This document shows, one piece after another, positions 20,663 to 63,384 of a DNA stretch of 64,000 nt. Numbering within the stretch: the stretch's first letter is position 1; every line of letters starts with the position of its first letter. The position numbers were made by a program, and so were the translations under genes. Below the pieces are notes generated by a model. That model saw only the letters and a list, made by a program, of their open reading frames with translations, did not search any database and was not told the DNA's origin. The stretch is from contig JAUSEK010000015.1 in assembly GCA_030650275.1 (NCBI GenBank), forward strand, positions 67,834-131,833, written 5' to 3'. Origin of the DNA: Candidatus Omnitrophota bacterium. GTDB lineage: Bacteria > Omnitrophota > Gorgyraeia > Zapsychrales > Fredricksoniimonadaceae.

Positions 20663-20746
20663 GGGCGGGTGGCGGAACTGGAATACGCGCAGGACTTAAA
20701 ATCCTGTGGCCGTAAGGTCATGAGGGTTCAAGTCCCTCCCCGCCCA
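20663..20746 (+). tRNA. tRNA-Leu (TAA), long variable arm
   Basis: GGGCGGGTGGCGGAACTGGAATACGCGCAGGACTTAAAATCCTGTGGCCGTAAGGTCATGAGGGTTCAAGTCCCTCCCCGCCCA. Anticodon loop CTTAAAA. Confidence 0.8.
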
Positions 20747-20756
20747 TAAATGATCC

Positions 20757-20830
20757 GGACTCGTAGCTCAGTTGGTTAGAGCGTCACGTTGACATCGTGA
20801 AGGTCACAAGTTCGAGCCTTGTCGAGTCCA
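20757..20830 (+). tRNA. tRNA-Val (GAC)
   Basis: GGACTCGTAGCTCAGTTGGTTAGAGCGTCACGTTGACATCGTGAAGGTCACAAGTTCGAGCCTTGTCGAGTCCA. Anticodon loop TTGACAT. Confidence 0.8.
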
Positions 20831-20839
20831 TTTTATTTT

Positions 20840-21445
20840 ATGCAAGAACAAAAGCTTAAAGAGTTGTATTGTGAACGCCGCCTGTCCATGATGGAGGTGG
20901 CCGACGAATTAAATGTTACGCACGCAAAAGTTTTTTATTGGCTTAAGAAATTTGATATTGCCCGACGCTCCTGGAGAGATAGTGCTTACATTAAGCAAAA
21001 TCGTCAAGGCGACCCGTTTATTATTCCCGATAGATTTTCTTCCAGAGAGAAAGAACTCTTGGCCGCCGGATTGCTTCTATATTGGGCTGAGGGTAATAAA
21101 GGGAAAGATGCTATTCGGATAGCCAACTTAGACCACCGTATGTTGAAGGTTTTTTTGAATTTCCTGAGAGAAGTTTGCAAGGTTGATGATAAACGATTAT
21201 TTTTATACGTTCGTGTTTATAAAGAATTTTCTTTAGAGGAAGCTCGGAAATATTGGTCCGATTTCTTGAATATTGCTCCCCAAAAGGTCTCCGTATACCC
21301 TCATACAGACACCAGAAGCAAAGGAAATAACCAGCGGTCCCAACATGGCATTGCAACGCTAGAATTTCATAATACGAAGTTTAAGCAATGGTTGGATTCT
21401 TCCACTGAAGATTTGATTCAAAAATTATTGGTCATTCCCGGCTGA
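20840..21445 (+). CDS. HTH + LAGLIDADG-like (homing-endonuclease-like) protein
   Basis: Likely start MQEQKL at 20840, 10 bp after tRNA-Val. The track ORF starts at 20819 inside the tRNA. N-terminal HTH (LSMMEVADELNVTHAKVFYWLKKF). A single LAGLIDADG-like motif, LLAAGLLLYWAEGNKG. About 200 aa, consistent with a single-motif dimeric type. Confidence 0.45.
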   Translation: MQEQKLKELYCERRLSMMEVADELNVTHAKVFYWLKKFDIARRSWRDSAYIKQNRQGDPFIIPDRFSSREKELLAAGLLLYWAEGNKGKDAIRIANLDHRMLKVFLNFLREVCKVDDKRLFLYVRVYKEFSLEEARKYWSDFLNIAPQKVSVYPHTDTRSKGNNQRSQHGIATLEFHNTKFKQWLDSSTEDLIQKLLVIPG

Positions 21446-21451
21446 GGAGCC

Positions 21452-45450: not shown

Positions 45451-45622
45451 TAGCTTGATTTTATACAATAAATGTGCAGAATTAATAAAAGAAGCTACCA
45501 CATACGTTTCATCCCCGCCGCTTCTGTTTAATAATCCCCGTTTTTGATAGAATTGCCACGGAAGTTAAAATAATGAACTTGCAAATACAACCATATAGTT
45601 GTATACTTTAGTAGGTAGCAGA

Positions 45623-45976
45623 ATGAGTAAATTTACATGTATTTATTATCAAACCGATGCAGGGAGAAGGCCCGTTGAGGAGTTTATTGATTCTTTGCAT
45701 GAAAGAACGCAGCAAAAGTATTTTGAGGTGGTGGGGTTATTAGAGGATTATGGGAAGAGTTTACCAAAGCCGCACGCGGATTTTTTAGGCGGTGAGATTT
45801 ATGAGCTTCGGTTTGTAGGGATTGAAGGGAAAGTAAGAATTTTATATTTCTTTTATCATGGCAACAAGATCATTTTTACAAATGGTTTTGTAAAGAAACG
45901 GCAAAAGGCCCCTAAGATAGAGGTTGAATTAGCCAAAGAGAGAAGAATTCTTTATATCGGGAAGCACAATGGGTGA
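45623..45976 (+). CDS. Type II toxin, RelE/ParE superfamily (HigB/Gp49-like)
   Basis: Likely start MSKFTCIYYQTDAGRRPVEEFI. About 117 aa. ...LRFVGIEGKVRILYFFYHGNKIIFTNGFVKKRQKAP typical of the Gp49-like HigB family. The toxin gene comes first. Confidence 0.7.
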   Translation: MSKFTCIYYQTDAGRRPVEEFIDSLHERTQQKYFEVVGLLEDYGKSLPKPHADFLGGEIYELRFVGIEGKVRILYFFYHGNKIIFTNGFVKKRQKAPKIEVELAKERRILYIGKHNG

Positions 45977-45979
45977 CAT

Positions 45980-46309
45980 ATGAAAGAAATGACCGTTAGA
46001 GAACATCTTCAGGAGAAATTGAAGAATCCTTATTTCAAGGAACTGCACGAACTTGAGCAGCAGAAGTATGCCATTGTTAAGAAAATCATTGATTATCGTA
46101 TTAAGCAGAATCTCACCCAAGCGGATCTAGCTGAGCAGATCAAAGTATCTCAACAGCATATTTCTAAGATCGAGAGCGGCGAGTTCAGCAGTGTGGCTAC
46201 GTTAGAGAAAGTGTTATTGGGGATCGGCATGACCGTCAGGATCGGGGTTGTTAAATTAAATCCCCAGATCCATAAGAAAATAACCCGGGCAATGACCCAT
46301 TCTGTTTAA
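45980..46309 (+). CDS. XRE-family HTH antitoxin (HigA-like)
   Basis: 109 aa. LTQADLAEQIKVSQQHISKIESGE HTH_3 motif. 3-bp spacing after the toxin gene. Confidence 0.75.
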   Translation: MKEMTVREHLQEKLKNPYFKELHELEQQKYAIVKKIIDYRIKQNLTQADLAEQIKVSQQHISKIESGEFSSVATLEKVLLGIGMTVRIGVVKLNPQIHKKITRAMTHSV

Positions 46310-47890: not shown

Positions 47891-49375
47891 TCAATATTTA
47901 ATACGACTACTCTCGACAATCGCTTTTGTGCTTGAGTCAATGTGATTCAAGATCAGCGACGGAAAACATCCGGCGAGGATCAATACGGCCAATAACAGCG
48001 CAAAGGGCAATTTTGCCAGAGGTGTTTGGGCATCCAACAGTTTGGAACAACGGGGATTCAGCGGCCCTTGGAAACCGAGGCGGATGGCTTTGAGCATATA
48101 AATGGCCGTGAGCACGACGCCCAGGACAGCCAGGACGGTATATAAACGGTATTGGTCCCACGCGCCTAAGAGGATCATGATCTCCGAGACAAAATTCGCG
48201 AATCCGGGTACGCCCGCGGAGGCGAGGGCTGCCATGGCAAAACACGTGGCCACAAACGGCATCTGTTTGGCCAGGCCGCCCCATTCATCCAAATTGCGGG
48301 TCCTGGTTTGATCGGCGATAAATCCGGTCAACGCGAAGGCGAGCGCCGCCATGATGCCGTGGGCGAACATCAAAAACACCACACCGTTAATGCCGATCAC
48401 ATTAAAACAGGCCAGGCCCAGCAGGATGTAGCCCATGTGGCTGCAGCTGGAATACCCCAAAATATATTTGAGGTCCCGCTGGGTCAGGGCGACTAATCCG
48501 CAGAAAAGGATATTGACGACGGCCAGGGCGGCGATGACGGGCATCCAGGTATGGGCGGCCTCGGGCATCAATTGAATGGCGAAGCGGATAATGGCATAAG
48601 CGCCCATTTTTTTGAGCACACCGGCGTGCAGCATGCTGATGGCTGTGGGCGCTTCCGCATACCCCACCGGAGCCCAGGTATAAAAAGGCCAGAGGGTCAG
48701 CGTTACGCCAAATCCGACGACGATCAGAGGGAAGACCCAGTTTTGAACGCTGATCGGCAAAGGATTGGCTGCTAAATACTGCTGGATTTGGACCAGATCA
48801 AATGTCTGCAAGCCGGTCGCAAGATATAAGGCAATGAGCCCGATCAGGGCCAGGGTCGCGCCGGCGATCAGATAAAGGGTCAATTTCATGGCGGCGTATT
48901 CACGACGCTCGGACCCCCAAATGGCGATCATTAAAAAGACCGGGATGGCCGCGACTTCGTGGAAGAAATAGAAAAAGAAAATATCCAGGGAGAGGAAGGC
49001 GCCGTAGGTGCCGATGACTGTGATCAATAAAAGGATGTAATATTCTTTGACCCGCTCCTTGATGGAGCCGCTGACGAGGAGGGCGGCGAAAGAAACGACC
49101 CCTAAGAGCAGCAAGAGCAGGGAATTGATCCCGTCGACCCCGACATGGTATGAGATGCCGAGCGGGGCGACCCAGGGGATTTTCTGAACGAATTGAAAAC
49201 CGCCTGCCGCGTGATCGTAAGCAGCCAACACCCAAACAGATAAAAGGAAAGGCAGAAGCACGGCAGCCGTAGAGATCCTGCGGATCGAAGAGGTCTTGTC
49301 AGACCCGACCATGAAAAGCAGGCCTAAGCCCGCCAAGGGCAGTAAAAGGATCCAGGAAAGATCAGGAACCATCAT
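47891..49375 (-). CDS. nuoM: NADH-quinone oxidoreductase subunit M
   Basis: 494 aa. Antiporter-like subunit. Confidence 0.9.
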   Translation of the reverse strand: MMVPDLSWILLLPLAGLGLLFMVGSDKTSSIRRISTAAVLLPFLLSVWVLAAYDHAAGGFQFVQKIPWVAPLGISYHVGVDGINSLLLLLLGVVSFAALLVSGSIKERVKEYYILLLITVIGTYGAFLSLDIFFFYFFHEVAAIPVFLMIAIWGSERREYAAMKLTLYLIAGATLALIGLIALYLATGLQTFDLVQIQQYLAANPLPISVQNWVFPLIVVGFGVTLTLWPFYTWAPVGYAEAPTAISMLHAGVLKKMGAYAIIRFAIQLMPEAAHTWMPVIAALAVVNILFCGLVALTQRDLKYILGYSSCSHMGYILLGLACFNVIGINGVVFLMFAHGIMAALAFALTGFIADQTRTRNLDEWGGLAKQMPFVATCFAMAALASAGVPGFANFVSEIMILLGAWDQYRLYTVLAVLGVVLTAIYMLKAIRLGFQGPLNPRCSKLLDAQTPLAKLPFALLLAVLILAGCFPSLILNHIDSSTKAIVESSRIKY

Positions 49376-51237
49376 AATTGTATGACCAGCGCAAAAAACA
49401 GGGCAATGACGCCCAGAACAAAAATCAAAGCATAGAATTGGACCAGACCGGTTTGCAGATAGCGAAGGGTCCTGCCGCCGGCTTTTGCCGCAGCTGTCAG
49501 GCCATGAACTCCGAAGCCCACAATGAAAGTTTTTTCAAACCACGATAAAAGGACGGCAAAGCTTTGCTGGACGCGGTCCACATACCACCCGTAGACAACG
49601 TCAAAATAGTATTTATTTTTTAAAACAGAATAGAAGGATCCGAGTTTTGTTTCCAGCGGGTCGCGGCTGGGGTGCTTGCTGTAGATCATATACGAGAGCC
49701 CTAACCCTAACACGGCAACCAAGGAAGAGATTAAAGCGACCCTCATATTAAGTCCTTCGTGCGCTTCCTGCGGATACAGGAAGTTGGGAATACCGATAAA
49801 ACCTCCGACGACCGAAAGAATGGCTAAAAAGATCAAAGGGTAGGTCATCACCGCCGGGGACTCATGGGCGTGATCAGACGCGGCGGGCTTGCCCTGAGCA
49901 ACGTCGAAGGGCTTGCTCCAAAAGGCGGTCCAGAACAGGCGGCCCATGTAAAAAGCAGTCAACAGCGACGTGACCGTCGCCATCCAATAGAGCAGGACAT
50001 TGTGTTGTGATGCCAGGGCCAGGATCTCGTCCTTGCTCCAAAAACCGCTTAAAGGAAAGATACCGCACAAAGCGAGCGTTCCGATCATGAAGGTGACGCC
50101 GGTGATGGGCATTTTTGCCAAAAGCCCGCGCATGTTCCAGATATTCTGCTCGTGATGAAGAGCACAGAGCACGCTACCGGCACCCAAAAAGAGCAGGGCC
50201 TTGAAAAAGGCATGGGTCGTTAAATGATACATGCCTTGCATGGGGCCGGACAAGCCCAAAGCCATGACCATCAGACCCAATTGGCTAAGCGTTGAATAGG
50301 CGAGGATGCGCTTAATATCATTTTCAACAATGGCGAGGGTCGCGGCCAACAGCGCCGTGATCCCGCCGACATAGGCAATGACGGTGAGCGCCGCGGTCAA
50401 GGGCTCAAAAATAAAGAACGTGCGCGCCAACAGATAAATACCTGCCGCCACCATCGTTGCCGCGTGAATGAGCGCGCTGACGGGCGTGGGGCCCTCCATA
50501 GCATCCGGCAGCCACACGTGCAAGGGGACCTGGGCGGATTTACCGACGACACCGCAGAACAGCAGCAATGCGGCCACCATCAGCAGATGAGGGTCTAAAT
50601 GAGGAACAGCCCGGGCCAGGTCCGTAAAAACAAAACTGCGGCCGTGGCCGATATCGGAGATGCTCCACAACAAAAGGATCCCGCAGAGAAATCCAAAATC
50701 CGCAAAGCGATTGACCATGAACGCCTTGACCCCGGCATCCGCGGCAGAGGGCTTGTGATACCAGAAACCGATGAGCAGATAGGAGCTTAAGCCCACCAGT
50801 TCCCAGGAGATGAACAGTTGAATCAAGTTGTTGGCCAGGACAATGCCTGTCATGGAGAAGGCGAACAAACTCAAGAACGCGAAGAACCTGGGGCTGCCCG
50901 GGTCCTCGGCCATATAGCCCCTGGAATAGATAAAAATGGCGCTGCCCACACCGGTGACGACCAAAAGCATCATGACCGCCAGCGGATTGACGAGAAATCC
51001 GAAGTCAATGGTCAGCGTGTCAAGCCGTATCCATGTCAGGGACTGCTGGAATTCAACGGGGGGATGGGATTGGAATATTTGTGCCGCGACTAAAATCGTA
51101 CAAACAAAAGAAATGAGGATGCCGGCAATGGCTAATAATGAACTCCATGTTTTAGAACGCAGGAAAAAAAGGGTAATGAGGACACAGGCGGTTAGCGGCG
51201 CAAAATACGCTATCCAAACCAAGGACGGGTCTACCAT
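49372..51237 (-). CDS. nuoL: NADH-quinone oxidoreductase subunit L
   Basis: 621 aa. Antiporter-like with C-terminal long helix extension. Confidence 0.9.
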   Translation of the reverse strand: MVDPSLVWIAYFAPLTACVLITLFFLRSKTWSSLLAIAGILISFVCTILVAAQIFQSHPPVEFQQSLTWIRLDTLTIDFGFLVNPLAVMMLLVVTGVGSAIFIYSRGYMAEDPGSPRFFAFLSLFAFSMTGIVLANNLIQLFISWELVGLSSYLLIGFWYHKPSAADAGVKAFMVNRFADFGFLCGILLLWSISDIGHGRSFVFTDLARAVPHLDPHLLMVAALLLFCGVVGKSAQVPLHVWLPDAMEGPTPVSALIHAATMVAAGIYLLARTFFIFEPLTAALTVIAYVGGITALLAATLAIVENDIKRILAYSTLSQLGLMVMALGLSGPMQGMYHLTTHAFFKALLFLGAGSVLCALHHEQNIWNMRGLLAKMPITGVTFMIGTLALCGIFPLSGFWSKDEILALASQHNVLLYWMATVTSLLTAFYMGRLFWTAFWSKPFDVAQGKPAASDHAHESPAVMTYPLIFLAILSVVGGFIGIPNFLYPQEAHEGLNMRVALISSLVAVLGLGLSYMIYSKHPSRDPLETKLGSFYSVLKNKYYFDVVYGWYVDRVQQSFAVLLSWFEKTFIVGFGVHGLTAAAKAGGRTLRYLQTGLVQFYALIFVLGVIALFFALVIQL

Positions 51238-51533
51238 TTCATTTCCTTCAATTCATCGGCCTGGATCGTGGCAAGGCGGCGGTACATCAGGACAATGATG
51301 GCAAGCCCTATGGCGACTTCCGCGGCGGCGACAAGAATGACAAAAAAGACGATCAATTGTCCGGCATAATCCCCGTTGAATTTGGAAAAGGCGACAAAAA
51401 CAAGGTTTGAAGCGGCCAAAAGAAGTTCCAGGGACAAGAGGACCTTGAGCACGTTGCGGCTTGTGATGACGCCCACAATACCGACGGAGAAGACAATGCC
51501 GCTCAAGAGGAGATAGTGTCCAAGCCCGATCAT
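51231..51533 (-). CDS. nuoK: NADH-quinone oxidoreductase subunit K
   Basis: 100 aa. 3 TM. Confidence 0.85.
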   Translation of the reverse strand: MIGLGHYLLLSGIVFSVGIVGVITSRNVLKVLLSLELLLAASNLVFVAFSKFNGDYAGQLIVFFVILVAAAEVAIGLAIIVLMYRRLATIQADELKEMKW

Positions 51534-52051
51534 TGGTTCCCCGCTTCCTTGCCCGTATTGAATGCTCCCTGGGCCAATGAAACGATCCCGAAGATCGCGA
51601 TCAGCAGAAGAAGCGATGTCAATTCAAAGGGAAGCAGATAATCCGTAAAGAGGACCCTGCCGATGGTTTCAATGGTCCCGCGGACCGAAGAAGGGCCCAT
51701 GGTCTGGGCCGCGATGAAACTTTTGACGGCCAAAAAGAATGAGGAGGCGAACATGAGCCCGACAACCCCTCCAAGCAACCGAAAACGGCTTTGTTGGACC
51801 GATGTGATCGTGGCCGCGTTAAGGTTCAGGCACATGACCACAAACAGGAAGAAAACGAGGACCGCCCCCGCGTAGACCAATATCAGGATGATCCCGACAA
51901 AAAAGGCCTCTAAAAGGACAAAAAGAGAAGACAGGGCAAAGATGGCGACGACCAGGGCCAGGACATTGTAGAGGGGGTTTCGCGCCAGAATGACGGCAAG
52001 GCTTGCCAGGACCAAAACAGCCGCAAAGAGATAAAAGAAAAGGGCAGGCAT
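51530..52051 (-). CDS. nuoJ: NADH-quinone oxidoreductase subunit J
   Basis: 173 aa. 5 TM. Confidence 0.8.
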   Translation of the reverse strand: MPALFFYLFAAVLVLASLAVILARNPLYNVLALVVAIFALSSLFVLLEAFFVGIILILVYAGAVLVFFLFVVMCLNLNAATITSVQQSRFRLLGGVVGLMFASSFFLAVKSFIAAQTMGPSSVRGTIETIGRVLFTDYLLPFELTSLLLLIAIFGIVSLAQGAFNTGKEAGNQ

Positions 52052-52177: not shown

Positions 52178-52245
52178 ATGTATTGGATCCCTGACACAAT
52201 TACAATTGCCATCAAAGGATCAGATGTTATAATGTGTGACAAAAT

Positions 52246-52449
52246 GTGAGGAATATTATGACCAAAATTCCAGAAGTTTACACCGTCGCAGAAGTAGCGC
52301 GGGCTTTAAAACTTAATCCGTATACTATACGGCGTCTTGTGCGTGAAAAGAAAATCCCAGCCATCAAAATCGGCGGGCATTGGCGGTTTAGGAAGGGTGA
52401 CATCAACCGTTTGCTGGCTAACCCCAGAAAAAGAAAGATGAAGCAATGA
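52246..52449 (+). CDS. Excisionase/AlpA-type helix-turn-helix DNA-binding protein
   Basis: 67 aa. YTVAEVARALKLNPYTIRRLVREKKIPAIKIGGHWRFRKGDI is the classic HTH_17/Xis signature. Stop overlaps the start of the next gene (ATGA). Confidence 0.75.
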   Translation: MRNIMTKIPEVYTVAEVARALKLNPYTIRRLVREKKIPAIKIGGHWRFRKGDINRLLANPRKRKMKQ

Positions 52450-55400
52450 GTACAGATTTAACATTTTTTACTAATGAAAAGGGACGTACCCTTCTTGATC
52501 GATTTAAAATTACTTTGGCGAATAACACTAAGTTTTTTGATGTGTTGGTTGGATACTTCAGAACTAGCGGTTTTTATCACTTGTACCAGTCGCTTGAGAA
52601 AGTCGAAAAGATTCGGATTTTAGTCGGGATCAACGTAAATAAACAGACACACGATCTATTGATTGAGGCGAAAGAGCAGCAGTTGGCGCTCGCGTTTTCC
52701 CATAAAGAAACAAAGGACGCGTTTGCGGATGAAGTCGCCCGGGAAATGGAGGAGTCGGAAGATAATGCGGAAACAGAGATTGGCGTCCAGAAGTTCATTG
52801 AATTCATAAAAAATGGCAAGCTTGAAATTCGCGCGTATCCTTCGCAGGATATTCACGCCAAGGTTTATATCATTCGTAAAGATCAATCTAAGAGTGAAGA
52901 TTTTGGTCGGGTGATCACTGGTTCAAGCAATTTTTCGTATGCAGGCCTCCATGAAAATCTTGAGTTTAACGTTGAGTTGAAGGATAGCAGGGATGTAAAG
53001 TTTGCTTTGGAGAAGTTTGAGGATCTCTGGAAGGATTCAGTTGATATTTCAGAGAAATATATTGAGACGGTTAACACAAGAACATGGCTCAATGATGCGA
53101 TTTCCCCACATGATCTGTACTTGAAATTTTTATACGAGTACTTTAAGGATGAATTAAATCAGTCCGACGAAGTTTTCTATCGCTATCTACCCATCGAATT
53201 CAAAAAATTTGAATATCAAGAGCAGGCAGTTCTTAACGCCAAAAAGATCCTTGAAGAGTATGGTGGTGTCTTCATCTCAGACGTAGTTGGCCTTGGGAAA
53301 ACATATATTTCAGCAATGCTTGCCAGCCAGCTTGATGGCAGAACCTTGGTCATAGCACCGCCTATTTTGCTTGAGAAAAATAATCCCGGCTCTTGGCCTA
53401 ATGTTTTTGATGACTTCCGGGTTCACGCGCACTTTGAGTCGATTGGTAAATTGGACGCCCTTGTCGAAGCTGGGACTGATAAATTTACGAATATTATTAT
53501 TGATGAAGCCCACCGGTTCCGTACTGAGAGCAACATGACCTATGAAAAATTGGCTGAGGTATGCCGTGGCAAGCGGGTTATTCTCGTTACAGCCACACCT
53601 TACAATAACTCACCCAAGGATATTTTAAGTCAAATTAAGTTGTTCCAAAAAGCGAGAAAAAGCACAATTCCAAACCTCCCCGATTTGGAGAAGTTTTTTA
53701 ACGGCCTTGATAGGCGATTAAAGGTTTTGGATCGTCAGCGAGATTATTCGGAATATATTAAGACCGTTAAGGAAAACGCCAGAGAGATCCGGGAAAAGGT
53801 GTTGAAGTATTTAATGGTTCGTCGCACCCGTTCAGAGATTATAAAATACTTTGGTGAGGATTTGGCAAAGCATAAACTCAAATTTCCCGATGTCGAGAAA
53901 CCAGAGCCACTTTTTTATGAACTTAATGATGAGGAAGATTTGGTATTCAGTCGAACTATTGAGTTGATCGCTCATAAATTTAAATACGCCCGCTACACTC
54001 CGATGCTTTATTACAAAGGGGAAGTGTCTCAACCAGAGAAATTATCCCAAAGAAACATGGGAAAATTTATGAAGATTCTGATGGTCAAACGGTTGGAGAG
54101 TAGTTTTTTTGCTTTTAGAAATACCCTTGATCGTTTTATTTATTCCTATGAGCAATTCATTAAAGAATTTGACGGTGGCAACGTCTATGTGAGCAAAAAA
54201 CACAGCAACAAAGTATTTGAGTTTTTGGAAAACGATGATGACGCGGCTGTTCAGCGCCTTATTGATGAAGGTAAGGCGGAGAAGTTTAAGAGTGGTGATT
54301 TCAAAGAAGGGTTGCTAAAAGATTTAAAGAGTGATCTGGATATATTAAAAGAAATTCATAAAATTTGGAGCACGGTTAAACGAGATCCGAAGCTATTGGC
54401 TTTTCTTGACCGGCTTGCCAGCAATCAAATCCTAAAGAAAAATAAACTCATCATTTTTACGGAATCCAAAGAAACGGCTGAATATTTAGCAAAAAATATT
54501 GAGATTAAATTTCCCAATACCACGCTTTGTTTTACTGGGGCATCAGGCGAGGTTATCCGCGAGAAGGTGATTGATAACTTTGATGCGAAAGTTAAACATC
54601 CAAAGGACGATTACCGGATTTTAGTATCAACAGAGGTTCTCTCCGAAGGTGTTAACTTGCATCGATCCAATGTGGTTATCAATTATGATATTCCATGGAA
54701 TCCTACCCGGATGATGCAAAGAGTTGGCCGCGTCAATCGAGTTGATACTAAATTTGACGTAATTTATACGTTCACCTTTTTCCCCACCAAACAAGCTAAC
54801 GATCAGATTAAGCTCAGAGAAGCGGCCGAGGCCAAGATTAATGCGTTTATCTCCATGCTTGGATCCGATGCTCGTCTTCTAACCGAAGGAGAGCCCATAG
54901 AACAGCATGAGCTATTTAATCGGTTAACTTCTAAGAGGACTATTACCGGTGAAGATGACGGCGAAGAGAGCGAATTGAAGTATCTGTATGTTATTAAGAC
55001 TATTCGGGATCAAGATCCGGAGATGTTTGAGAAAATCAAGCGGCTCCCCAGAAAATCAAGAACCGCGCGAGCCAACGGTGAAAAAGTTAATTCACTACTG
55101 ACATATTTTAGACGTGGAAAGATCGAGAAATTTTTTATTGCGGGGGGTAACGAGAAATCGCAGGAACTTGACTTTATGTCAGCAGCTAAAACTTTAGAGA
55201 GTGGGAAAGATGCCCCTAAAGGCAAGATTGATAACAAGAATTTTTATGAGCTTTTAGCTCAGAATAAACAGGCGTTTATTTATGCCACCACCGAGGAGTT
55301 GCCCGAGGTTAAATTGCGGGGCGGCCGGGATAGCGCGACGCAAGTCCTTAGGATTATAAAGGCCACCTTAAAAGACAGTAGGCAATTTACTGATGACCAG

Positions 55401-55643
55401 GAGTATTACCTTAAAAAAGTTCGCACACAATTGGAAGAGGGCGCTCTACCTAAGCAGACAACCAAGAAAACACTTCAGGCCTTAAATGATGAGCTTAAAA
55501 AGGGAGTTAATCCCCTGCGAATCCTCGCCCGTTTACAGGCAAATATACCGGCGAAGCTTCTCGAGGGACATTTTGTTGAAGATCATGCGCAAGTATTTGG
55601 AAAAAGAGAAGTCATATTATCGGAATATTTAATCGCCGGATAA
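52446..55643 (+). CDS. PLD-family nuclease domain fused to SNF2-family helicase
   Basis: 1065 aa. N-terminal single HKD motif (IHAKVYIIRKD...VITGSSNFSYAGLHENLEFNVEL). Walker A VVGLGKTY. DEAH (IIIDEAHRFR). Helicase-C motifs (LVSTEVLSEGVNLH, QRVGRVNRV). The frame is intact. Confidence 0.8.
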   Translation: MSTDLTFFTNEKGRTLLDRFKITLANNTKFFDVLVGYFRTSGFYHLYQSLEKVEKIRILVGINVNKQTHDLLIEAKEQQLALAFSHKETKDAFADEVAREMEESEDNAETEIGVQKFIEFIKNGKLEIRAYPSQDIHAKVYIIRKDQSKSEDFGRVITGSSNFSYAGLHENLEFNVELKDSRDVKFALEKFEDLWKDSVDISEKYIETVNTRTWLNDAISPHDLYLKFLYEYFKDELNQSDEVFYRYLPIEFKKFEYQEQAVLNAKKILEEYGGVFISDVVGLGKTYISAMLASQLDGRTLVIAPPILLEKNNPGSWPNVFDDFRVHAHFESIGKLDALVEAGTDKFTNIIIDEAHRFRTESNMTYEKLAEVCRGKRVILVTATPYNNSPKDILSQIKLFQKARKSTIPNLPDLEKFFNGLDRRLKVLDRQRDYSEYIKTVKENAREIREKVLKYLMVRRTRSEIIKYFGEDLAKHKLKFPDVEKPEPLFYELNDEEDLVFSRTIELIAHKFKYARYTPMLYYKGEVSQPEKLSQRNMGKFMKILMVKRLESSFFAFRNTLDRFIYSYEQFIKEFDGGNVYVSKKHSNKVFEFLENDDDAAVQRLIDEGKAEKFKSGDFKEGLLKDLKSDLDILKEIHKIWSTVKRDPKLLAFLDRLASNQILKKNKLIIFTESKETAEYLAKNIEIKFPNTTLCFTGASGEVIREKVIDNFDAKVKHPKDDYRILVSTEVLSEGVNLHRSNVVINYDIPWNPTRMMQRVGRVNRVDTKFDVIYTFTFFPTKQANDQIKLREAAEAKINAFISMLGSDARLLTEGEPIEQHELFNRLTSKRTITGEDDGEESELKYLYVIKTIRDQDPEMFEKIKRLPRKSRTARANGEKVNSLLTYFRRGKIEKFFIAGGNEKSQELDFMSAAKTLESGKDAPKGKIDNKNFYELLAQNKQAFIYATTEELPEVKLRGGRDSATQVLRIIKATLKDSRQFTDDQEYYLKKVRTQLEEGALPKQTTKKTLQALNDELKKGVNPLRILARLQANIPAKLLEGHFVEDHAQVFGKREVILSEYLIAG

Positions 55644-55646
55644 TGT

Positions 55647-58600
55647 ATGGATAAAAATACAAGCCACAAAATTATTAAGGATACTTTGGAAAGAGCATTT
55701 GATAAAAATAAATTTTTTCTATTTGCAAAGAATCTCTGCAATCAGATTGATGAATCAAAGGCATTTCAGTTAAGTGGGGCTTATATCCCAGATGCATTTC
55801 GCGGATACGTTAAGTCATATGAACGGCTTGGAACTTTTACCGACCCGGAAGATAAGAAGATAGATGTCTTGATTGTCTATCTTCAAAAGAAAACTTCTTT
55901 GGAGAGGGCCCGCACCGCACAGCGCAATTTCGTTGCTCGCTATCTCAAAGATCGTGATCAAAAAGATGCTGGTCTGGTTGCTTTCGTTTCCCCAAACTCG
56001 GAGGATTGGCGGTTTTCCCTGATCAAAATGGAGTACAAGTTTACCGAGGGGAAATCCGGGAAGGTAAAGGTCAAAGAAGAATTCACCCCGGCGCGTAGAT
56101 GGTCTTTCCTTGTCGGGGCTAATGAAAACAGCCACACAGCCAAGAGTCGTTTGGCCCCGATCGTTCAGGATGATGAGCATAACCCTACCCTGAATTTTTT
56201 TGAAGAAGCATTCAATATTGAAAAAGTCACAAAAGAGTTCTTTGAGAAATATCGTGACCTGTTTTTGCGGGTTAAAGAAACTCTCGATGATGTGGTTAAA
56301 CAAGACCCGAAGATCAAGAAAGATTTTATTGCTAAGGGCGTGGATACTGTTGACTTTGCAAAGAAGCTACTCGGGCAGATTGTTTTTCTTTATTTTTTAC
56401 AAAAAAAAGGTTGGTTCGGTGTCGAACGCGATGCAGATTGGGGTTCCGGGCCTAAAAATTTTTTACGTCAACTCTTTGATAAAAAACACAGCGATTATAG
56501 GAACTTTTTTAACGATATTTTAGAACCGTTATTTTATGAAGCCCTTGCCCGTGAACGAGATCATGATTTTTACAGTCGCTTCAACTGTAAAATTCCTTTT
56601 TTAAACGGCGGTCTATTTGATCCAATCAATAATTATGACTGGGTTCATACTGATGTTCTTTTACCCGACGATTTATTCTCGAATGAAAGGAAAACTAAAG
56701 AAGGCGATATTGGTGACGGTATTTTAGATATTTTTGACCGGTATAATTTTACAGTTAAAGAAGATGAGCCACTTGAAAAGGAAGTGGCCATTGATCCTGA
56801 AGTGTTAGGAAAAATATTTGAAAAGCTTGGAGCGATAACGCCAAGTAGATTTAATGAATGGGCAGAAGCAGTCCGTTCCGGGGAAAAGAGCAAGGAGCAG
56901 GAGGCTAATAAAAAATTGGGAGTTTATTATACTCCTCGTGAAATTGTTCACTACATGTGTGTGCAAAGTTTAGTTAATTATTTAGATATGGAACTTCATG
57001 GGAAGGTTTTACAAGAAGATCTGGAAAAATTTATTAAGTATGGAGAGATGGCCGTTGAGCACGAAGCGCTATATGCTGAAAAGATTGAACAGAATCCGGA
57101 TTATAAAGGGAGATACGCCAAACCCAAATTGCCAGTTAGCATTGAACAAAACGCAGAAATAATTGATAGATCTTTAGCCAACATTAAAGTTTGCGACCCT
57201 GCTATTGGTTCGGGTGCTTTCCCAGTAGGCATGATGACAGAGATTGTTCGCAATCGGAATACGCTTTCAAGTTATCTTAAGGATCCAAGTCGTACGATTT
57301 ATAATTTCAAACGTGATTGTATTCAAAATTCGCTTTATGGTGTGGACATTGACCGGGTGCTGTTGAAATCGCCAAGCTTCGTTTGTGGCTGTCGCTTGTT
57401 GTGGATGAGGACGACATTAAGCAGATTAAGCCGTTACCAAATTTGGACTACAAGATAATGCAGGGCAATAGCTTGTCGGAAGAGTTTGAGGGTGTAAAGC
57501 TGTTTGATGACAAGCTAATTTTTGCTGTTAATTTCGATAAGGAAAAACAGGTTGAAGATCTCAAGGAAAAACAGAACACTCTATCGAGTGAGTATATTAA
57601 ACTTCATCAGGATAATAAACTGACCAATATAAGGAAAGAGGAGATAAAAGTAGAACTAAAGAAAATAAATAATCAGATTAAGAGCCTCAACCAGTCTGGG
57701 AAGAAGGCTCATGACGATACTGGGTTGTTTGATGTTTTCAGCAATGCAAAGAAGAAAGCGGACGAGTTAAAGCGCCTGCATAAAGAATTCTTTGAGACGA
57801 CCCAAAAGAAGGATGATCTTAAGAAACAGATTGAAAAGCTCGAATGGGATCTTATTGAGGCTACCCTTAAGGAACAAGGGAAAAATTCAGAGCTTAAAAA
57901 ACTTGAGGAGTTTAAGAAGACAAATACAAAACCTTTTTTTCTTTGGAAGCTCCACTTTGCCGATGTATTTGAAGAGAAGGGCGGTTTCGATGTTGTAATT
58001 GCGAATCCACCGTATATTAAAGAAGATGTGAATAGACATGCCTTTGACGGGCTGAGAAAGTCGGATTGTTATCAGGGTAAAATGGACATATGGTATTTGT
58101 TTGGTTCTGAAGGGTTGGATATTTTGAGAAATCATGGGGTAATGACATTTATTGCTACAAATAATTGGGTTACGAACGATGGTGCATCTAAGTTTAGAAA
58201 TAAAATAATTAAGTATGGCCGTATTATTGATTTTATTGATTTTGGAGATTATAAAATTTTTTCTGCGGGAATCCAAACAATGGTTTTTGTAGTTCTTAAG
58301 GATAACGAATCACCAGAATATGATTTGAAGTATGCCAAGCTACTTGATAATAATGCCGACGGAACGTTGTTAACAAGTTTTTTAAATGAACCCCATGAAT
58401 TATTAAATCATCGATTTGAGAAATTTAAAGTTTCAATTAGAAGATCCTCCTATTTAGAAGGTTATATTAAATTTATCCACCCCACCATTGGCAGGATATT
58501 AGATAGGATAAAGAGTGCAGGTTGTTTTAATTTAATGGATCACGAAATATTTAGTGGGATTGATGTAATGCAGGATTTTGTCGCCAAATCACATTTGGAA

Positions 58601-59329
58601 AAGCTGAATGGAAAAATTGGTGTTGGTGATGGTGTTTTTGTCTTAAGTGAAATAGAAAAAACACGAATCAAATGGAGCAACAAGGAATTAAATTTAATAA
58701 AACCATATTATACGACTCGGGAAATCGCAAGATATTATGCCAATAAATCCAATAGGCATTGGATTGTTTATACCGGGGCTGACGCTAACGATAAAATTAG
58801 CCTTTATCCAAATATAAAAAAACACTTAGATAAATTTAAAAAAATAATTACATCTGTAAATAAACCATATGGTTTACACAGAACCCGTGATGAAGAAAAT
58901 TTTCTTGGTCAAAAAATATTTTCTATTCGTAAATGTGCAATACCATCCTTTTCCTTGGTAAATTTTCCGTGCTATGTGTCTAGGGCATTCTTGATTATTA
59001 AGACAAACAGAATTGATTTTAAATATCTCCTGGCGATCTTGAATTCTAAAGTCACTGTTTTTTGGTTACTGCATAAGGGGAAGCTCCAAGGAAATCAATT
59101 TCAGGTAGATAAGGTACCATTGATGGATATCCCAATAGTATGCGGTCAACCTTCTAATCAAAAGCCCATAATTGATCTTGCGGATAAGATTTTATCATTG
59201 GCTCAGGATAACAAACAGACGCAAGATAAAATAAAAGAATACGAGCGTCAAATTGATCAAATGGTCTATGCGCTTTATGGCCTGACGGACGAGGAGATTA
59301 AGATCGTTGAGGAAAGTGTGGGTAAATGA
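55647..59329 (+). pseudogene. Gamma-class N6-adenine DNA methyltransferase (PglX/DrmMI/type IIG-like, ~1230 aa) disrupted by a -1 frameshift at ~57353
   Basis: ORF 55647-57458 carries the conserved N-terminal region (KIPFLNGGLFDP) and motif I (VCDPAIGSGAFPV...YGVDIDR). ORF 57383-59329 continues with AVEIAKLRLWLSLVVDE...NLDYKIMQGNSL, motif IV VVIANPPYIKE, and the C-terminal target-recognition region ending QMVYALYGLTDEEIKIVEES. The frames join if GACCGGG is read as GACCCGGG. Confidence 0.8.
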
Positions 59330-59946
59330 TAATAAAGATGGAAGAAGATACAAGATACCAGAAAGCGATACAAAGAAATATTGATTCGATTTTTCATGCT
59401 TTGTGGGAGTGGAAAACGATAGAAGCCTTTGAGCAATATGTAGAAGGAAAAAGGATCTATGTTTTAGGCCAAAATTTTTTTAAAATAATGCCGGTTGCCT
59501 TTTTTGGTGACATGTTAAGAAACGCCATTAATGTGCTTGATAAACACAGTGATGTCGCTTCATTTTGGTATATTCTAGAAGTAGGCGAAATTAAATCGTT
59601 AGAGATATATTCAGAACAAAAAATTGATTCTTTGAAAGATTTGGCTGGGAAATTAAAACACATTCGTGATAAAGTTTTTTTTCATCATGATAAGAATGGT
59701 GTTTTAGATACAAAGAAAATTTGGAAAGAAGCCGACATTGTAGGGAAAGATGTTGGCGAGGCCATTCAATATTTATTTTCTATATTGAAAGAGTTATATG
59801 AAAAGGTCATGAAAAAACAATATCACTCCGATCCTGATAATAGCATTGGGGAAGATTTCGTTAAACTATTAAATTTTGCAGCAGAAAATGGTTTTATTGA
59901 GGTTCGTTCGGAGAATTTTCGGGGACGTCTTCGAGTCTGTGGGTAG
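59326..59946 (+). CDS. Hypothetical protein, translationally coupled to the methyltransferase
   Basis: 206 aa. No recognisable motif. ATGA overlap with the upstream stop. Confidence 0.45.
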   Translation: MIIKMEEDTRYQKAIQRNIDSIFHALWEWKTIEAFEQYVEGKRIYVLGQNFFKIMPVAFFGDMLRNAINVLDKHSDVASFWYILEVGEIKSLEIYSEQKIDSLKDLAGKLKHIRDKVFFHHDKNGVLDTKKIWKEADIVGKDVGEAIQYLFSILKELYEKVMKKQYHSDPDNSIGEDFVKLLNFAAENGFIEVRSENFRGRLRVCG

Positions 59947-59983
59947 GATTAATCGTTAAATCTAGAGAGAAGAAAAAAACGTC

Positions 59984-60817
59984 ATGGCACAAAAATTCTA
60001 TGAAAAAGCATCAGTTCAAGTAGCAATAGTTGCGGGTATTTTTTCGTTGCTTTACTGCGGAATAACTATCTGGAACGATCGATCACAATTAAAACAAGAC
60101 AATCAAAATTATGTTCGAGAATTGATTCAAAAAGACAGTCGCATTGCAAGCTTAGAGCGAGAGATCCAACGATTAGAAATTCAACTCGTACCTTTAAAAA
60201 TAGTCTCGCTGGAAGGGCAATCTTTTATATTTAATGTTGCTAAGATTTCACAGTTAGGAGATTTGTCATCTTGGCATAATAAGTATGGCGGCCAACGACA
60301 AAGCTATGAGGAATTATTATCTTGGGGAAAAAAAGAAAATAGTTCCGAAATAAAGAAAAAGATTTCTGTCGAGACAGAAAGACTAGAAGAAATTTATGAC
60401 CCACGTATTATGATACCAACCATAGAACAGCCTATTTCTATATGTAAATTTATAACTCAGCCAAATATTCCTGCTTGTGCTTGGGGGCTCGAACCGCCTA
60501 CAGGTTACGATGCAAAAAATGTATTTCATCATCTGACTGAAAGGATATGGACTGAACGCGCCAGAGCCGCCTGTCTATTAAGGAATATAAGGACATCGCA
60601 GTATAAAGATCAAATAGACAAAGAAAAGCTTTTTGACACTCTCGTATCTCTCATGAAAGAAGAAAATGAAAAGAGCTTATTTGTTAGCAAAATGGCTCTA
60701 AATACCTATAGCGAATTGACGGGATTTTCACCTTCTGGCGTGTTTGATTTTGATGGCGCGATTAATGATTGGAAAAGCATGGAAAGAAAAAAAGAAATTT
60801 TAAAAATAAACTTCTGA
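59984..60817 (+). CDS. Hypothetical membrane-anchored coiled-coil protein
   Basis: 277 aa. One N-terminal TM (VAIVAGIFSLLYCGITIW) then coiled-coil (ELIQKDSRIASLEREIQRLEIQL). No known domain. Confidence 0.4.
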   Translation: MAQKFYEKASVQVAIVAGIFSLLYCGITIWNDRSQLKQDNQNYVRELIQKDSRIASLEREIQRLEIQLVPLKIVSLEGQSFIFNVAKISQLGDLSSWHNKYGGQRQSYEELLSWGKKENSSEIKKKISVETERLEEIYDPRIMIPTIEQPISICKFITQPNIPACAWGLEPPTGYDAKNVFHHLTERIWTERARAACLLRNIRTSQYKDQIDKEKLFDTLVSLMKEENEKSLFVSKMALNTYSELTGFSPSGVFDFDGAINDWKSMERKKEILKINF

Positions 60818-60947
60818 AAGTTGGGACGTCCCCTTAATCAGATGGTTGGAATAGGAAATTTTGATGACGCATAAAGAATCCGAAACAATCGAATTCAAAA
60901 AATCCACCGCCGAGGTTAAAGTGGGGGATGGCCGGGGAGAGGAGTAA

Positions 60948-62201
60948 GTGAAAACAATGTCATTGAAATCAATCGGTTTTGGTGAATCGACGACTGTCGA
61001 ATGGAAGCCATCGCTGTCGCAGATCCATGAGATCATCGAAAGCATAACAGCTTTTGCTAATACCGAGGGTGGACGATTGTTTGTAGGCATATCGAAGACT
61101 GGAGAGGGCATAGGTGTTCAGATTGGTAAAGGTACGGTAGAAGGTCTGGTTAATCGTATCGCTCAACATACTGATCCGAAAATCCAGCCGAAGATCACGG
61201 TCAAAAAGATTAAAGGCAAACAGGTTATTGTTATTGAAGTCAAACAGTCCAAGGATAGATTGGTCCTGGCCGATGGCCGGCCATATAAGCGTGTGGGGCC
61301 TTCGACCCGGCAAATGGGCAAGGATGAATACGAAGGGCTGATCCTGGAGAAACATAAGGGTAAACACTATTTTGATGAGCAGATCTGTGATGGCGCAAAG
61401 ATCTCGGATGTCAGCAGAGAAAAGCTTTTGGCATTTATTAAAGAAGCTAAACGGGAAAGGGGCTTAAGCATTGCTGAGGGTTTGTCGGTGACGGATATTT
61501 TGCGAAAGCTTAAACTCGTAAAGAATGACAAGCTAACCAATGGAGCTATTTTGTTGTTTGGTAAAGACACACAGAATTTCTTTTTACAATCTGAGCTAAA
61601 AGCGGTTCGATTTAAGGGCTTAGATGAAACCAGACCCATGCTTGATTTTAAAACGATTGGCGGGGATGCGATCACGCTTCTTAAAAAGGCTGAAGGTTTT
61701 ATTTATGACCATATCCCGATGAGGGCATGGATACAACCTGGGAAACTACAACGTCAGGAAAAATGGCTGTATCCGGAGGAAGCTATAAGAGAGGCTTTGG
61801 CCAATGCTTTGGCGCATAGAGACTACAGTAGTCCGGGCAAGGTTCAGGTGAGGATCTTTGATGATCGCTTGGAGATATGGAATCCGGGGCTTTTACCGCC
61901 ACCATTAACACTGGAGAAGTTAAAAGGAAAACATGATTCAGTTCCGCGCAATCCGCTTATTGCCAAGGCGTTTTTCTGGATCAAATATGCTGAAGATGTT
62001 GGATCGGGGACAAGCAAGATCATTCAGTGGTGTAAGGAGTGGGGATTGCCCGAGCCGACATATGAGGAAGCCGGGGCCAGTTTTGTGACGGTATTTCATA
62101 ATCCTAAGCCGGAGGATGGTGGTCAGCAAGGGGGCCAGAAACAGGGGCCAGAAACAGGGGCCAGAAAATTACCCCCAAACAAGCTATGGTTTTGGATTTG
62201 A
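60948..62201 (+). CDS. AlbA_2 (Schlafen-like) + HATPase_c_4 putative DNA-binding ATPase; C-terminal wHTH out of frame (62186-62362)
   Basis: 417 aa. N-terminal ESTTVEWKPSL...AFANTEGGRLFVGI (AlbA_2/divergent AAA). C-terminal HATPase_c_4-like (IREALANALAHRDY). The winged-helix segment expected for this family (MVLDLIRRNPLISRHDIASKLEINDSVVRKHLDALKAKGVLKRVG) is encoded immediately downstream in another frame. Confidence 0.6.
   Translation: MKTMSLKSIGFGESTTVEWKPSLSQIHEIIESITAFANTEGGRLFVGISKTGEGIGVQIGKGTVEGLVNRIAQHTDPKIQPKITVKKIKGKQVIVIEVKQSKDRLVLADGRPYKRVGPSTRQMGKDEYEGLILEKHKGKHYFDEQICDGAKISDVSREKLLAFIKEAKRERGLSIAEGLSVTDILRKLKLVKNDKLTNGAILLFGKDTQNFFLQSELKAVRFKGLDETRPMLDFKTIGGDAITLLKKAEGFIYDHIPMRAWIQPGKLQRQEKWLYPEEAIREALANALAHRDYSSPGKVQVRIFDDRLEIWNPGLLPPPLTLEKLKGKHDSVPRNPLIAKAFFWIKYAEDVGSGTSKIIQWCKEWGLPEPTYEEAGASFVTVFHNPKPEDGGQQGGQKQGPETGARKLPPNKLWFWI
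62130..62168. repeat. 13-bp tandem repeat (GGGGCCAGAAACA x ~3) at the frame break of the AlbA_2 gene
   Basis: Seen directly: gggggccagaaacaggggccagaaacaggggccagaaaa. Confidence 0.85.
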
Positions 62202-62337
62202 TCAGGCGGAACCCATTGATATCCCGCCATGATATTGCGAGTAAGCTTGAGATCAATGATTCCGTGGTTCGGAAGCATTTGGACGCATTGAAGGCCAAAG
62301 GCGTGCTTAAGAGGGTTGGCCCTGATAAAGGCGGACA

Positions 62338-63384
62338 TTGGGAGGTTGTGGCTTGGAAATAAAGAACTCATTCGGCCTGACCAAGGTCAAGCATGTCATC
62401 GCCGTCTCTTCCTGCAAAGGCGGGGTGGGCAAATCCACTGTTGCCGCGGGATTTGCGCGTTCTTTATGCCAACAGGGCTTTAAAACAGGACTTTTGGATG
62501 CCGACATCCACGGACCATCCCTTCCAACGCTGTTTAACCTGACCTCCGGCGTTAAGGTCCTTTCCAATGAATTCCGGATGATCGTTCCTGTTGAATCCCA
62601 GGGGCTCAAATTGATGTCCTTTGGTTTTTTGCTGGGGGACGCGCCGGCTGTGATGCGCGGGCCCATCGTCACCCGGTATATCCAGCAGATGATGCTTCAG
62701 ACCGACTGGGGCGAACTGGATTATCTGATCGTTGACATGCCGCCCGGGACAGGGGACGTGCAGTTGACCATCACCCAGTCCGCGCGCCTGACGGGCGCTG
62801 TGATCGTCACCACCCGCCAGACCTTGTCGCTGGTGGACGTGGCGCGCGGGATCCTGATGTTTGAGAAGGTGAGCGTTCCCATTTTAGGCATCGTTGATAA
62901 CATGGCCTATTTTGTCTGCGGATCCTGCCAGACAAAGCATTATCTGTTTGGCGGCGAGCATGCGCTGGAAAAACGTTTCGGCGTCAAGACGCTGGTGGAG
63001 ATCCCGTTGATCGCGGACCTTGCTCTGGAGTCCTATATGGACCAGGGCGCGCAAGCGATGTTGGACGCGGTCAAGGCACAGGCACAGGCCAAAGAGCAGC
63101 TTCCCGAGGTCAGTTTTGACGCAGAGCATATCCATTTGAAATTTGCCGACGGCAGGCAGGTGCAGGTGAAAAATCGCGACCTGCGTTTGAATTGCATGTG
63201 CGCTTTATGCGTGAGTGAATTGACCGGACAGAAATTGATCGCCCCTGCGAAAATACGCCCTGACATTGCTCCCAAAGAAATCGTGCCGCTGGGCAATTAT
63301 GCCTTGAGCATCACATGGAACGACGGCCATTCTTCAGGTATCTATCCCTATTCCATGTTTGAATTATGGGGACACAATACTTAA
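62338..63384 (+). CDS. Mrp/NBP35 (ApbC-like) Fe-S cluster carrier ATPase with C-terminal DUF971-like domain
   Basis: About 345 aa. The start is uncertain; an alternative TTG lies near 62353. P-loop SCKGGVGKST. CxxC (FVCGSC). C-terminal ...NYALSITWNDGHSSGIYPYSMFELW. Confidence 0.8.
   Translation: MGGCGLEIKNSFGLTKVKHVIAVSSCKGGVGKSTVAAGFARSLCQQGFKTGLLDADIHGPSLPTLFNLTSGVKVLSNEFRMIVPVESQGLKLMSFGFLLGDAPAVMRGPIVTRYIQQMMLQTDWGELDYLIVDMPPGTGDVQLTITQSARLTGAVIVTTRQTLSLVDVARGILMFEKVSVPILGIVDNMAYFVCGSCQTKHYLFGGEHALEKRFGVKTLVEIPLIADLALESYMDQGAQAMLDAVKAQAQAKEQLPEVSFDAEHIHLKFADGRQVQVKNRDLRLNCMCALCVSELTGQKLIAPAKIRPDIAPKEIVPLGNYALSITWNDGHSSGIYPYSMFELWGHNT

Follow-up and report, generated by a model that had tools for sequence, protein, structure and literature searches.

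A widespread PLD::SNF2-methylase module resembling restriction-modification systems, in an AT-rich island of a Candidatus Omnitrophota bacterium

Among described defence systems, MANTIS (Gao_RL, "Type-2 BREX-related system"; components MtsA-MtsD) is ATP-dependent and resembles restriction-modification (R-M): an N-terminal HKD/PLD nuclease is fused to an SF2/SNF2 motor and encoded beside an N6-adenine methylase that sets specificity, often with a small repressor gene upstream, and a dimer of the PLD-helicase restricts at methylase-defined sites (bioRxiv 10.64898/2026.09.23.753747). DISARM class 1 combines an SNF2-type helicase, a separate PLD nuclease and a long N6-adenine methylase, together with DrmA (a YprA/DUF1998 helicase) and DrmB. 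Enzymes of Type IIG/IIL (MmeI, Cj0031, Eco57I family) unite a gamma-class N6-adenine methylase and a C-terminal specificity domain in one polypeptide and are ATP-independent; in Type III (Mod/Res) and Type ISP enzymes, the latter being single polypeptides, a methylase/specificity component directs an SF2 helicase-nuclease, with ATP used for long-range communication. BREX and MANTIS have been hard to dissect, since four to six proteins plus AAA+ loaders are needed. Here we compare with these systems an AT-rich island of a Candidatus Omnitrophota bacterium, found within a 64,000-nt stretch of DNA (the window; GenBank assembly GCA_030650275.1, contig JAUSEK010000015.1, positions 67,834 to 131,833 of the forward strand), in which a small helix-turn-helix (HTH) gene, a gene for a PLD::SNF2 helicase-nuclease and a long methylase gene are followed by three genes of other kinds.

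The proteins of the island were scanned against Pfam, PADLOC and NCBIfam models. All six genes lie on the plus strand. The first three encode an HTH protein of the MerR/excisionase type (52246-52449; Pfam HTH_17), the 1065-aa helicase-nuclease (52446-55643; PLDc_2, RE_NgoFVII, ResIII, SNF2-rel_dom, Helicase_C), and an MmeI/PglX-like, gamma-class N6-adenine methylase with an Eco57I methylase domain (55647-59329), which is a pseudogene here and has 1227 aa when repaired. The domains named in an initial annotation of the window, which was made from the sequence without database searches and also placed SLFN_AlbA_2 and HATPase_c_4 in a gene further downstream, were all found by Pfam. That annotation read five tightly coupled genes and the AlbA_2 gene behind them as one candidate defence system. 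We conclude instead that the real unit is a three-gene R-M-like module (small regulator, PLD::SNF2, methylase), which is widespread and has been noted in passing before.

This conclusion comes from the neighbours of the helicase-nuclease gene in 80 related loci, drawn from genomes of more than 15 phyla. The methylase N-domain is encoded directly downstream in 76 of the 80, always in the same order, and the exceptions include contig ends; the conserved linkage of PLD::SNF2 to a long N6-adenine methylase, which the initial annotation required, is borne out. No other neighbour recurs in these loci except AlbA_2/HATPase_c_4 homologues, present in nine and mostly wedged between the two core genes, whereas the 206-aa and 277-aa proteins encoded downstream of the methylase in the window (here HEPN206 and TM277) are each found in none. 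The helicase-nuclease family is large (7,887 of 8,000 scored candidates at E<=1e-20), with full-length identities of 64-72% across Patescibacteria, Omnitrophota, Syntrophia, Planctomycetota, Chloroflexota, Bacteroidota, Nitrospirota and others, and one match in a Methanosarcinales archaeon. Searches of phage and plasmid collections gave no close relatives, the plasmid matches all being below 60% identity (best 35%).

Relatives close to the window copy (95%, 85% and 83% identity) keep the small upstream gene, PLD::SNF2 and an intact methylase of 1151-1152 aa but differ in cargo, which is a dCMP-deaminase-like gene on a plasmid-like contig in the first, SIR2 and a DUF87/HerA-type gene in the second, and unknown genes in the third. 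The 95%-identical module, with its 1151-aa methylase, lies on a 35-kb Logan contig from SRR8797412 with primase and Replic_Relax genes alongside, likely a plasmid vehicle for the module's spread. A 97%-identical copy (CAYINK010000111.1) is binned as an uncultured gammaproteobacterium, whereas the window comes from Candidatus Omnitrophota; this points either to a very recent inter-phylum transfer or to a binning error. Elsewhere in the family, genes inserted between the core genes encode RhuM, ORF6N, Bro-N, DUF3800, AbiEii with a small partner, a PIN pair, a HepT pair, or AlbA_2. Such inserts are passengers common in (Type I) R-M operons.

Cultured relatives that are only 30-35% identical retain the pairing together with an HTH gene. 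The order in Prevotella nigrescens is HTH, helicase-related protein and N-6 DNA methylase, with inverted partial methylase genes downstream, and in Parabacteroides distasonis it is HTH, an AlbA_2-like "RNA-binding domain" protein, SNF2-related protein, N-6 DNA methylase and a TIR protein. The inverted genes of P. nigrescens (NZ_CP082843; 13987-16643 of the extracted locus) are two partial "Eco57I restriction-modification methylase domain" genes on the strand opposite to the full methylase, with an "ATP-binding protein" gene between them. This looks like a specificity-domain shufflon, matching the Cj0031-like/PLD+SNF programmed inversions of PMC9881135. Two rows of Table 3 in that paper on programmed inversions already place a Cj0031-like "Type II R-M" gene beside a PLD+SNF gene (PMC9881135). 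No named or tested system of this composition was found in the literature searched, most subscription journals and REBASE lying outside its scope. PADLOC holds a Type IIG model that takes the methylase, an unassigned "HKD+Snf2" model and none for the pair, so that the pair would not come up there as one system. The initial annotation's proposal of a minimal, undescribed module is thus upheld in that no existing model covers the whole operon, but "undescribed" was too strong, given the score of the methylase on the Type IIG model (791 bits), the "HKD+Snf2" model and the published pairing.

The alternative favoured at first, a single DISARM/BREX-like system of five or six genes in which the HEPN, transmembrane (TM) and AlbA_2 proteins are dedicated subunits, draws on the packing of the operon, with ATGA overlaps and gaps of no more than 37 nt among the first five genes, and on partial matches of the helicase-nuclease to DrmD and BrxH and of the methylase to PglX and, weakly, to DrmMI. 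It is largely refuted by the comparison of the 80 loci, since neither HEPN206 nor TM277 recurs and close relatives carry wholly different downstream genes, and relatives of HEPN206 occur without R-M genes. The equivalog models also score far below their cut-offs: DrmD (NF038317) gives 136.5 bits against 610 and matches only residues 448-827, in the C-terminal half of the helicase-nuclease; PglX gives 54 against 500, so that PglX orthology of the methylase is not supported; MAD1 (NF047737) gives 45.6 against 80, and "phospholipD_antiphage" 147 against 1100. PLD is fused to SNF2 here and separate in DISARM. Between nuoJ and mrp/apbC, the genes that flank the island, the Pfam, PADLOC and NCBIfam scans found no DrmA/DrmB, PglZ, BrxC or DUF499. 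DrmB has no match in the island, and the sole match for DrmA (54 bits) is to the generic helicase C-domain of PLD::SNF2; neither is a conserved neighbour in the related loci. BrxC/PglY, PglZ, BrxA, BrxB and BrxL are likewise missing from the island proteins, although several family members have been called "PglX" by PGAP and PglX is the second-best structural match of the methylase. The initial annotation was right that the locus is neither DISARM nor BREX; that the operon as a whole is one such system we consider very improbable, and its two supposed novel accessory proteins are better regarded as cargo.

The comparison with MANTIS is closer in design. There too an HKD/PLD nuclease leads into the motor and a methylase stands beside it, but the DUF499 AAA+ ATPase (MtsA) and the DUF3780/DUF3870 protein (MtsB) are neither encoded in the island nor conserved in the 80 loci. 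The methylase described for DUF499-centred systems is of COG1743, whereas that of the island is MmeI/Eco57I-like with a C-terminal specificity domain. The helicase-nuclease also scores 84 bits on the PADLOC model "PLD_Helicase"; to judge from their lengths, this model and "phospholipD_antiphage" probably represent MtsD. By analogy with Type III and Type ISP enzymes, the methylase would direct the helicase-nuclease, ATP would serve communication over long distances, and one would expect an asymmetric site to be methylated on one strand and cleavage to depend on site orientation. Res, however, has its nuclease, a PD-(D/E)XK, at the C-terminus, while in PLD::SNF2 it is a PLD and stands at the N-terminus. 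Mod belongs to the beta class of methylases and bears its specificity domain internally; the methylase of the module is gamma-class and MmeI/PglX-like. In its predicted working the module is like a Type III or MANTIS-style R-M system, yet it belongs to neither.

In the 1065-aa protein a single HKD domain (H137-x-K139, G159SSNFS) precedes a complete SNF2/SF2 motor (GLGKT 282-286, DEAH 353-356, QRVGRVNR 758-765). All of these motifs are invariant across 79 family members and unbroken in this copy, and the gene is apparently intact. The best PADLOC model is PDLC01075, "HKD+Snf2" (161 bits). Matches to DrmD, BrxH, HmaA, DpdE and ZorD are confined to the helicase part, and membership in Hma (HmaA, 72 bits), Zorya (ZorD), Dpd (DpdE) or Azaca was rejected because the matches are to the generic helicase C-domain only. 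SauUSI was not among the matches listed for the full-length protein. From its sequence we predict that PLD::SNF2 is an ATP-dependent restriction subunit.

The methylase gene, which follows the helicase-nuclease gene after 3 nt, is split into two open reading frames (ORFs), 55647-57458 and 57383-59329, because one nucleotide is missing between 57354 and 57355; with a C put in there, GVDIDPGAVEIAKLRLWLSLVVDE and the 1227-aa protein are recovered, and relatives read GAY-CCN-RGY-GCN-GTT-GAA at this site. The 603-aa N-terminal ORF is 100% identical to NCBI protein Q7K71_04445, encoded on a 175-kb contig of the Omnitrophota metagenome-assembled genome, and the same truncated ORF appears in an independent Logan assembly of run SRR13727527. 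Because the two agree, the lesion is in the data and is not due to a single assembler. We considered programmed frameshifting or phase variation here and rejected it, as the sequence at the lesion, GACC^GGG, forms no slippery heptamer and no long homopolymer. The repaired protein has DPAIGSGAF (517-525) ahead of NPPY (787-790), and its domains run from an N-terminal fold like that of a restriction endonuclease through a helical spacer and the gamma-class methylase to the specificity domain. The score of 791 bits quoted above was obtained by its N-terminal half on PDLC03596 (REase_MTase_IIG), a REBASE-derived hidden Markov model in PADLOC; PDLC03612 gives 175 bits. Relatives carry the Pfam domains MmeI_Mtase, Eco57I, N6_Mtase and TaqI_C, and in a fold comparison MmeI was the best structural match, ahead of PglX.

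Conservation along the methylase is uneven. In 51 full-length sequences residues 1-390 and the catalytic motifs are strongly conserved and residues 800-1130 hypervariable. In Mantel comparisons over 48 loci, pairwise divergence correlates with that of the helicase-nuclease at r=0.58 (p=0.001) for the N-domain and r=0.41 for the catalytic core, against r=0.00 (p=0.46) for the specificity region, whose mean identity is 21%. Even between the window copy and its 95%-identical relative this region is only 31% identical. The pattern is the signature of a two-protein machine inherited as a unit apart from its specificity module, which recombination exchanges.

The same data bear on a different reading, in which the methylase works on its own as a Type IIG/IIL enzyme whose N-terminal PD-(D/E)XK nuclease is active, as in MmeI and Cj0031, and PLD::SNF2 is a helper or separate effector, for instance a processive degrader of cut DNA or a SauUSI-like Type IV enzyme acting on modified phage DNA. 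The high Type IIG score, the many invariant charged residues at 59-122 and the existence of solitary Cj0031-like homologues (PMC9881135) agree with such a division of labour, as does the resemblance in structure that the MANTIS authors report between MtsD and SauUSI, a Type IV enzyme (bioRxiv 10.64898/2026.09.23.753747). On the other side, the canonical nuclease triad, D-x(n)-(D/E)-x-K, is not recognisable in the N-domain, and the position two before the conserved K81, where an acid would sit, is an invariant Leu79. A search of the family profile against PDB sequences, aimed at aligning the catalytic residues of MmeI, did not reach the N-domain. The nuclease motif of MmeI is D-x9-E-x-K, and the N-domain of PglX is a non-catalytic interface or DNA-handling domain. 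By analogy, the N-domain of the present methylase is more likely to be of the latter kind than a nuclease. PLD::SNF2, for its part, has no modified-base reader domain recognisable in the Pfam and PADLOC scans. Because the linkage is near-obligate (a separate, predicted ATP-dependent partner in 76 of 80 loci, as genomic evidence) and the N-domain co-varies with the helicase-nuclease, one machine is indicated rather than two independent ones, and we hold the Type IIG/IIL alternative to be unlikely.

We think it likely that the three genes form an ATP-dependent, R-M-like module in which the methylase directs PLD::SNF2, with hitch-hiking cargo. The HTH protein would autoregulate the operon in the manner of an R-M controller. 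The methylase would read a short motif through its hypervariable C-terminal domain and mark host DNA. If MmeI, PglX, Type ISP and MANTIS are a guide, this motif probably lacks symmetry and receives its methyl group on a single strand. At unmethylated sites PLD::SNF2 would be recruited or licensed through the conserved N-domain of the methylase and would translocate on DNA using ATP. Cleavage would be made by one PLD active site formed from dimerised single HKD domains, as in BfiI, SauUSI and MtsD, and, to borrow from Type III, Type ISP, SauUSI and MANTIS, would probably be most efficient when two inversely oriented sites communicate. The module would do this with proteins of other families and without an AAA+ loader. 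The HEPN_AbiU2 RNase, the TM-HEAT protein and the Schlafen/AlbA_2-HATPase-winged HTH (wHTH) protein would be swappable hitch-hikers, perhaps PrrC-like second-line or abortive-infection modules. The lesions, the gene content and motifs, the linkage and co-variation, and the similarity of fold are observations; we infer the physical interaction of the two core proteins, the hemimethylation and the translocation-coupled cleavage, as well as the regulatory role of the HTH protein and an abortive-infection role of the cargo, from such comparisons.

The state of this copy lends the scheme weak local support. A broken methylase beside an intact nuclease should be lethal in a classical pair of independent R and M; if it is tolerated, the nuclease would therefore depend on the methylase for targeting. 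Since the methylase and the AlbA_2 gene are both frameshifted, this copy is decaying and probably non-functional. Several points weigh against the scheme. The argument from the broken methylase is a weak one, because the nuclease may have silent inactivating changes of its own or the lesion may be of recent origin. Methylation, cleavage and anti-phage activity of the family are all predicted, and no experiment on them was found. PADLOC places the methylase under Type IIG, there are solitary Cj0031-like homologues, and the methylases of MANTIS and BREX need an AAA+ loader that is absent here. The PLD domain found nothing significant among PDB sequences (best E=0.51), and Foldseek gave no significant PDB match for the methylase model.

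A third possibility is that the pair is not immune at all and that SNF2 and methylase serve host chromosome biology (epigenetic regulation, repair, nucleoid remodelling) or form an addiction module that is purely selfish. Housekeeping roles are known for SNF2 proteins such as RapA, orphan or phase-variable methylases can regulate genes, Cj0031 being described as phase-variable (PMC9881135), and the methylase is dispensable in this genome. The patchy distribution across phyla at 64-72% identity, archaeon included, the AT-rich island and the plasmid-like contig indicate horizontal spread, however, and the hypervariable specificity domain, the invariant nuclease site fused to a motor and a neighbourhood of defence genes and toxin-antitoxin pairs all run counter to a housekeeping or purely selfish role, which we find highly implausible.

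A bolder form of the R-M-like proposal is that the HTH/PLD::SNF2/methylase trio is a distinct and very widespread class of ATP-dependent R-M, an R-M type or subtype of its own, in which a PglX-type methylase directly licenses a PLD-helicase dimer without BrxC, PglZ or an AAA+ loader, as a minimal form of BREX/MANTIS-style discrimination between self and non-self. We put this forward tentatively, at slightly worse than an even chance. If the two-protein core works in the way outlined further above, it would be the simplest case known of an ATP-driven PLD nuclease that takes its direction from a methylase of the BREX/MmeI type, and such a two-component relative could reveal how a methyl mark on one strand is recognised and what licenses a PLD-helicase dimer. 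Members of the gene pair carry mixed labels ("PglX", "Eco57I methylase domain", "N-6 DNA methylase", "helicase-related protein"), and the family is abundant across many uncultured phyla, with more distant versions in human-associated Prevotella and Parabacteroides. As a minimal relative of systems of the BREX/MANTIS type, the module plausibly merits characterisation; this decaying copy is of little experimental value.

The small HTH gene probably starts at ATG 52258 (63 aa), with a GAGGA ribosome-binding site upstream, and overlaps the helicase-nuclease gene by ATGA. Its product scores 61 bits on Pfam HTH_17, 47.8 on the NCBIfam model "excise" and 46 on PADLOC mad1. MADS was considered for its resemblance to MAD1 and rejected, as the MAD1 score lies below cut-off and no other MADS model matched. 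A short gene abuts or overlaps the start of the helicase in about 14 of 77 eligible loci and encodes HTH_17, XRE HTH_3 or an unclassified basic protein; the HTH of this window itself is present in three of the 80. In four of the loci (L010, L013, L014, L025) a conserved basic protein of about 60 aa (e.g., MSIKRNYAKKTMIELSDEQYFFLKEKALELQ...) that matches no Pfam family is encoded by a gene sharing 4 nt with the start of the helicase gene. Occupying the slot held elsewhere by HTH_17 or XRE regulators, this protein may be a ribbon-helix-helix-type repressor. An interchangeable small upstream regulator resembles the controller proteins of R-M systems, and the HTH protein of the window is most likely the putative controller of its operon.

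The first cargo gene (59326-59946), joined to the methylase by an ATGA overlap, encodes the 206-aa protein that the initial annotation had left as an unknown. It belongs to HEPN_AbiU2 (Pfam, 28.5 bits against a cut-off of 26.8), and as a predicted RNase it has the HEPN catalytic motif R-x4-6-H in the form R114-x5-H120 (R114-DKVFF-H120), invariant in four relatives. Only three relatives of HEPN206 were found among 5.8 billion proteins. The closest, 76% identical, lies in a nuo-like (complex I) operon beside a KilA-N gene, without R-M genes nearby (9001-10514 of locus L089; ENA ERZ27253378 k141_1642900); the island in the window also abuts nuoJ. This nuo context suggests that these organisms have either a site near nuo genes at which insertion recurs or a HEPN gene that was already resident when the R-M module arrived. 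The next gene (59984-60817), after a 37-nt gap, is variable cargo as well, and its 277-aa product is a membrane-anchored protein with an N-terminal TM helix and coiled coil followed by a HEAT/ARM-like alpha-solenoid. It belongs to a small modular family, of which a metagenome scan confirmed no relatives.

A 130-nt gap precedes the last gene, a Schlafen/AlbA_2-HATPase_c_4-wHTH pseudogene (60948..62362) with SLFN_AlbA_2 (82 bits), HATPase_c_4 (82 bits) and, on the ORF 62186-62362, HTH_24. The initial annotation had its domains right but missed its frameshift, which is due to a perfect 13-nt tandem array (GGGGCCAGAAACA x 2.8) at 62131-62167 (Tandem Repeats Finder: period 13, 100% matches). With one copy of the unit the gene reads in frame into the wHTH ORF (a 462-aa ORF when two copies are removed), whereas three copies break the frame; the unit could be a slippage-prone on/off switch or a simple duplication lesion. 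Upstream, an ORF read directly from the sequence (60865..60947, plus strand; MTHKESETIEFKKSTAEVK...; MTHKESETIEFKKS...) encodes an orphan AlbA_2 N-terminus. Within it, 60910-60936 matches 55303-55329 of the helicase-nuclease gene as a 27-nt repeat (85%), and the orphan is possibly a scar left by recombination where the AT-rich block ends on the right.

AlbA_2/HATPase_c_4 is a recurrent accessory of the module family. AbiU2 HEPN genes occur in R-M operons, where they have been proposed to be PrrC-like back-up RNases (PMC3710099), and for BREX and BREX-related (BR) loci a wide occurrence of adjacent "backup effectors" is reported, among them Schlafen-HATPase-wHTH genes and HEPN genes that stand alone (PMC12839542). 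Because such genes are reported beside R-M and BREX loci, HEPN206, TM277 and AlbA_2 are, by analogy, best understood as second-line modules in their own right, carried along with R-M operons.

The region is an AT-rich defence island acquired horizontally. Its G+C (GC) content averages 0.383 (sd 0.035, n=18) in 500-nt windows from 52.0 to 60.9 kb, against 0.531 (sd 0.041, n=107) in the remainder of the window, so that the switch which the initial annotation had placed at about 52.2 kb, ending near 60.9 kb, is confirmed, as are the gene order, ATGA overlaps and tight packing it described (largest gap among the first five genes 37 nt). By gene, GC is 0.45 for HTH, 0.41 for the helicase-nuclease, 0.37 for the methylase, 0.33 and 0.36 for the 206-aa and 277-aa genes and 0.46 for AlbA_2, against 0.53-0.54 for nuoJ and mrp on either side. 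On the left the island is bordered by the divergent nuoJKLM cluster (47891-52051, minus strand) and on the right by the mrp/apbC-type gene (62338-63384). No flanking direct repeats, integrase or tRNA were found at the island as signatures of integration; the tRNAs in the window are at 6.2 and 20.6 kb, and repeats within 51.4-62.7 kb look like chance.

Just 5' of the HTH gene, a consensus scan found a putative promoter on the plus strand (52206..52233; TTGCCA, 16-nt spacer, TG-extended TATAAT), which matches the consensus at 11 of 12 positions plus the TG, and a promoter-like site for nuoJ diverges from it on the minus strand (52085-52058). A 19-nt imperfect inverted repeat (16/19; 52262-52280 and 60807-60825) spans the operon from the start of HTH to the end of the 277-aa gene and is probably due to chance. 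Just past the stop of the 277-aa gene lies a perfect GGGACGTCCC palindrome (60823-60832), which may be a hairpin or terminator. Other AT-rich dips in the window occur at 45500-46000 (GC 0.376), 21000-21500 (0.396) and 12500-13000 (0.418), and the one at 21 kb adjoins a tRNA-Cys/Leu/Val cluster (20582-20830).

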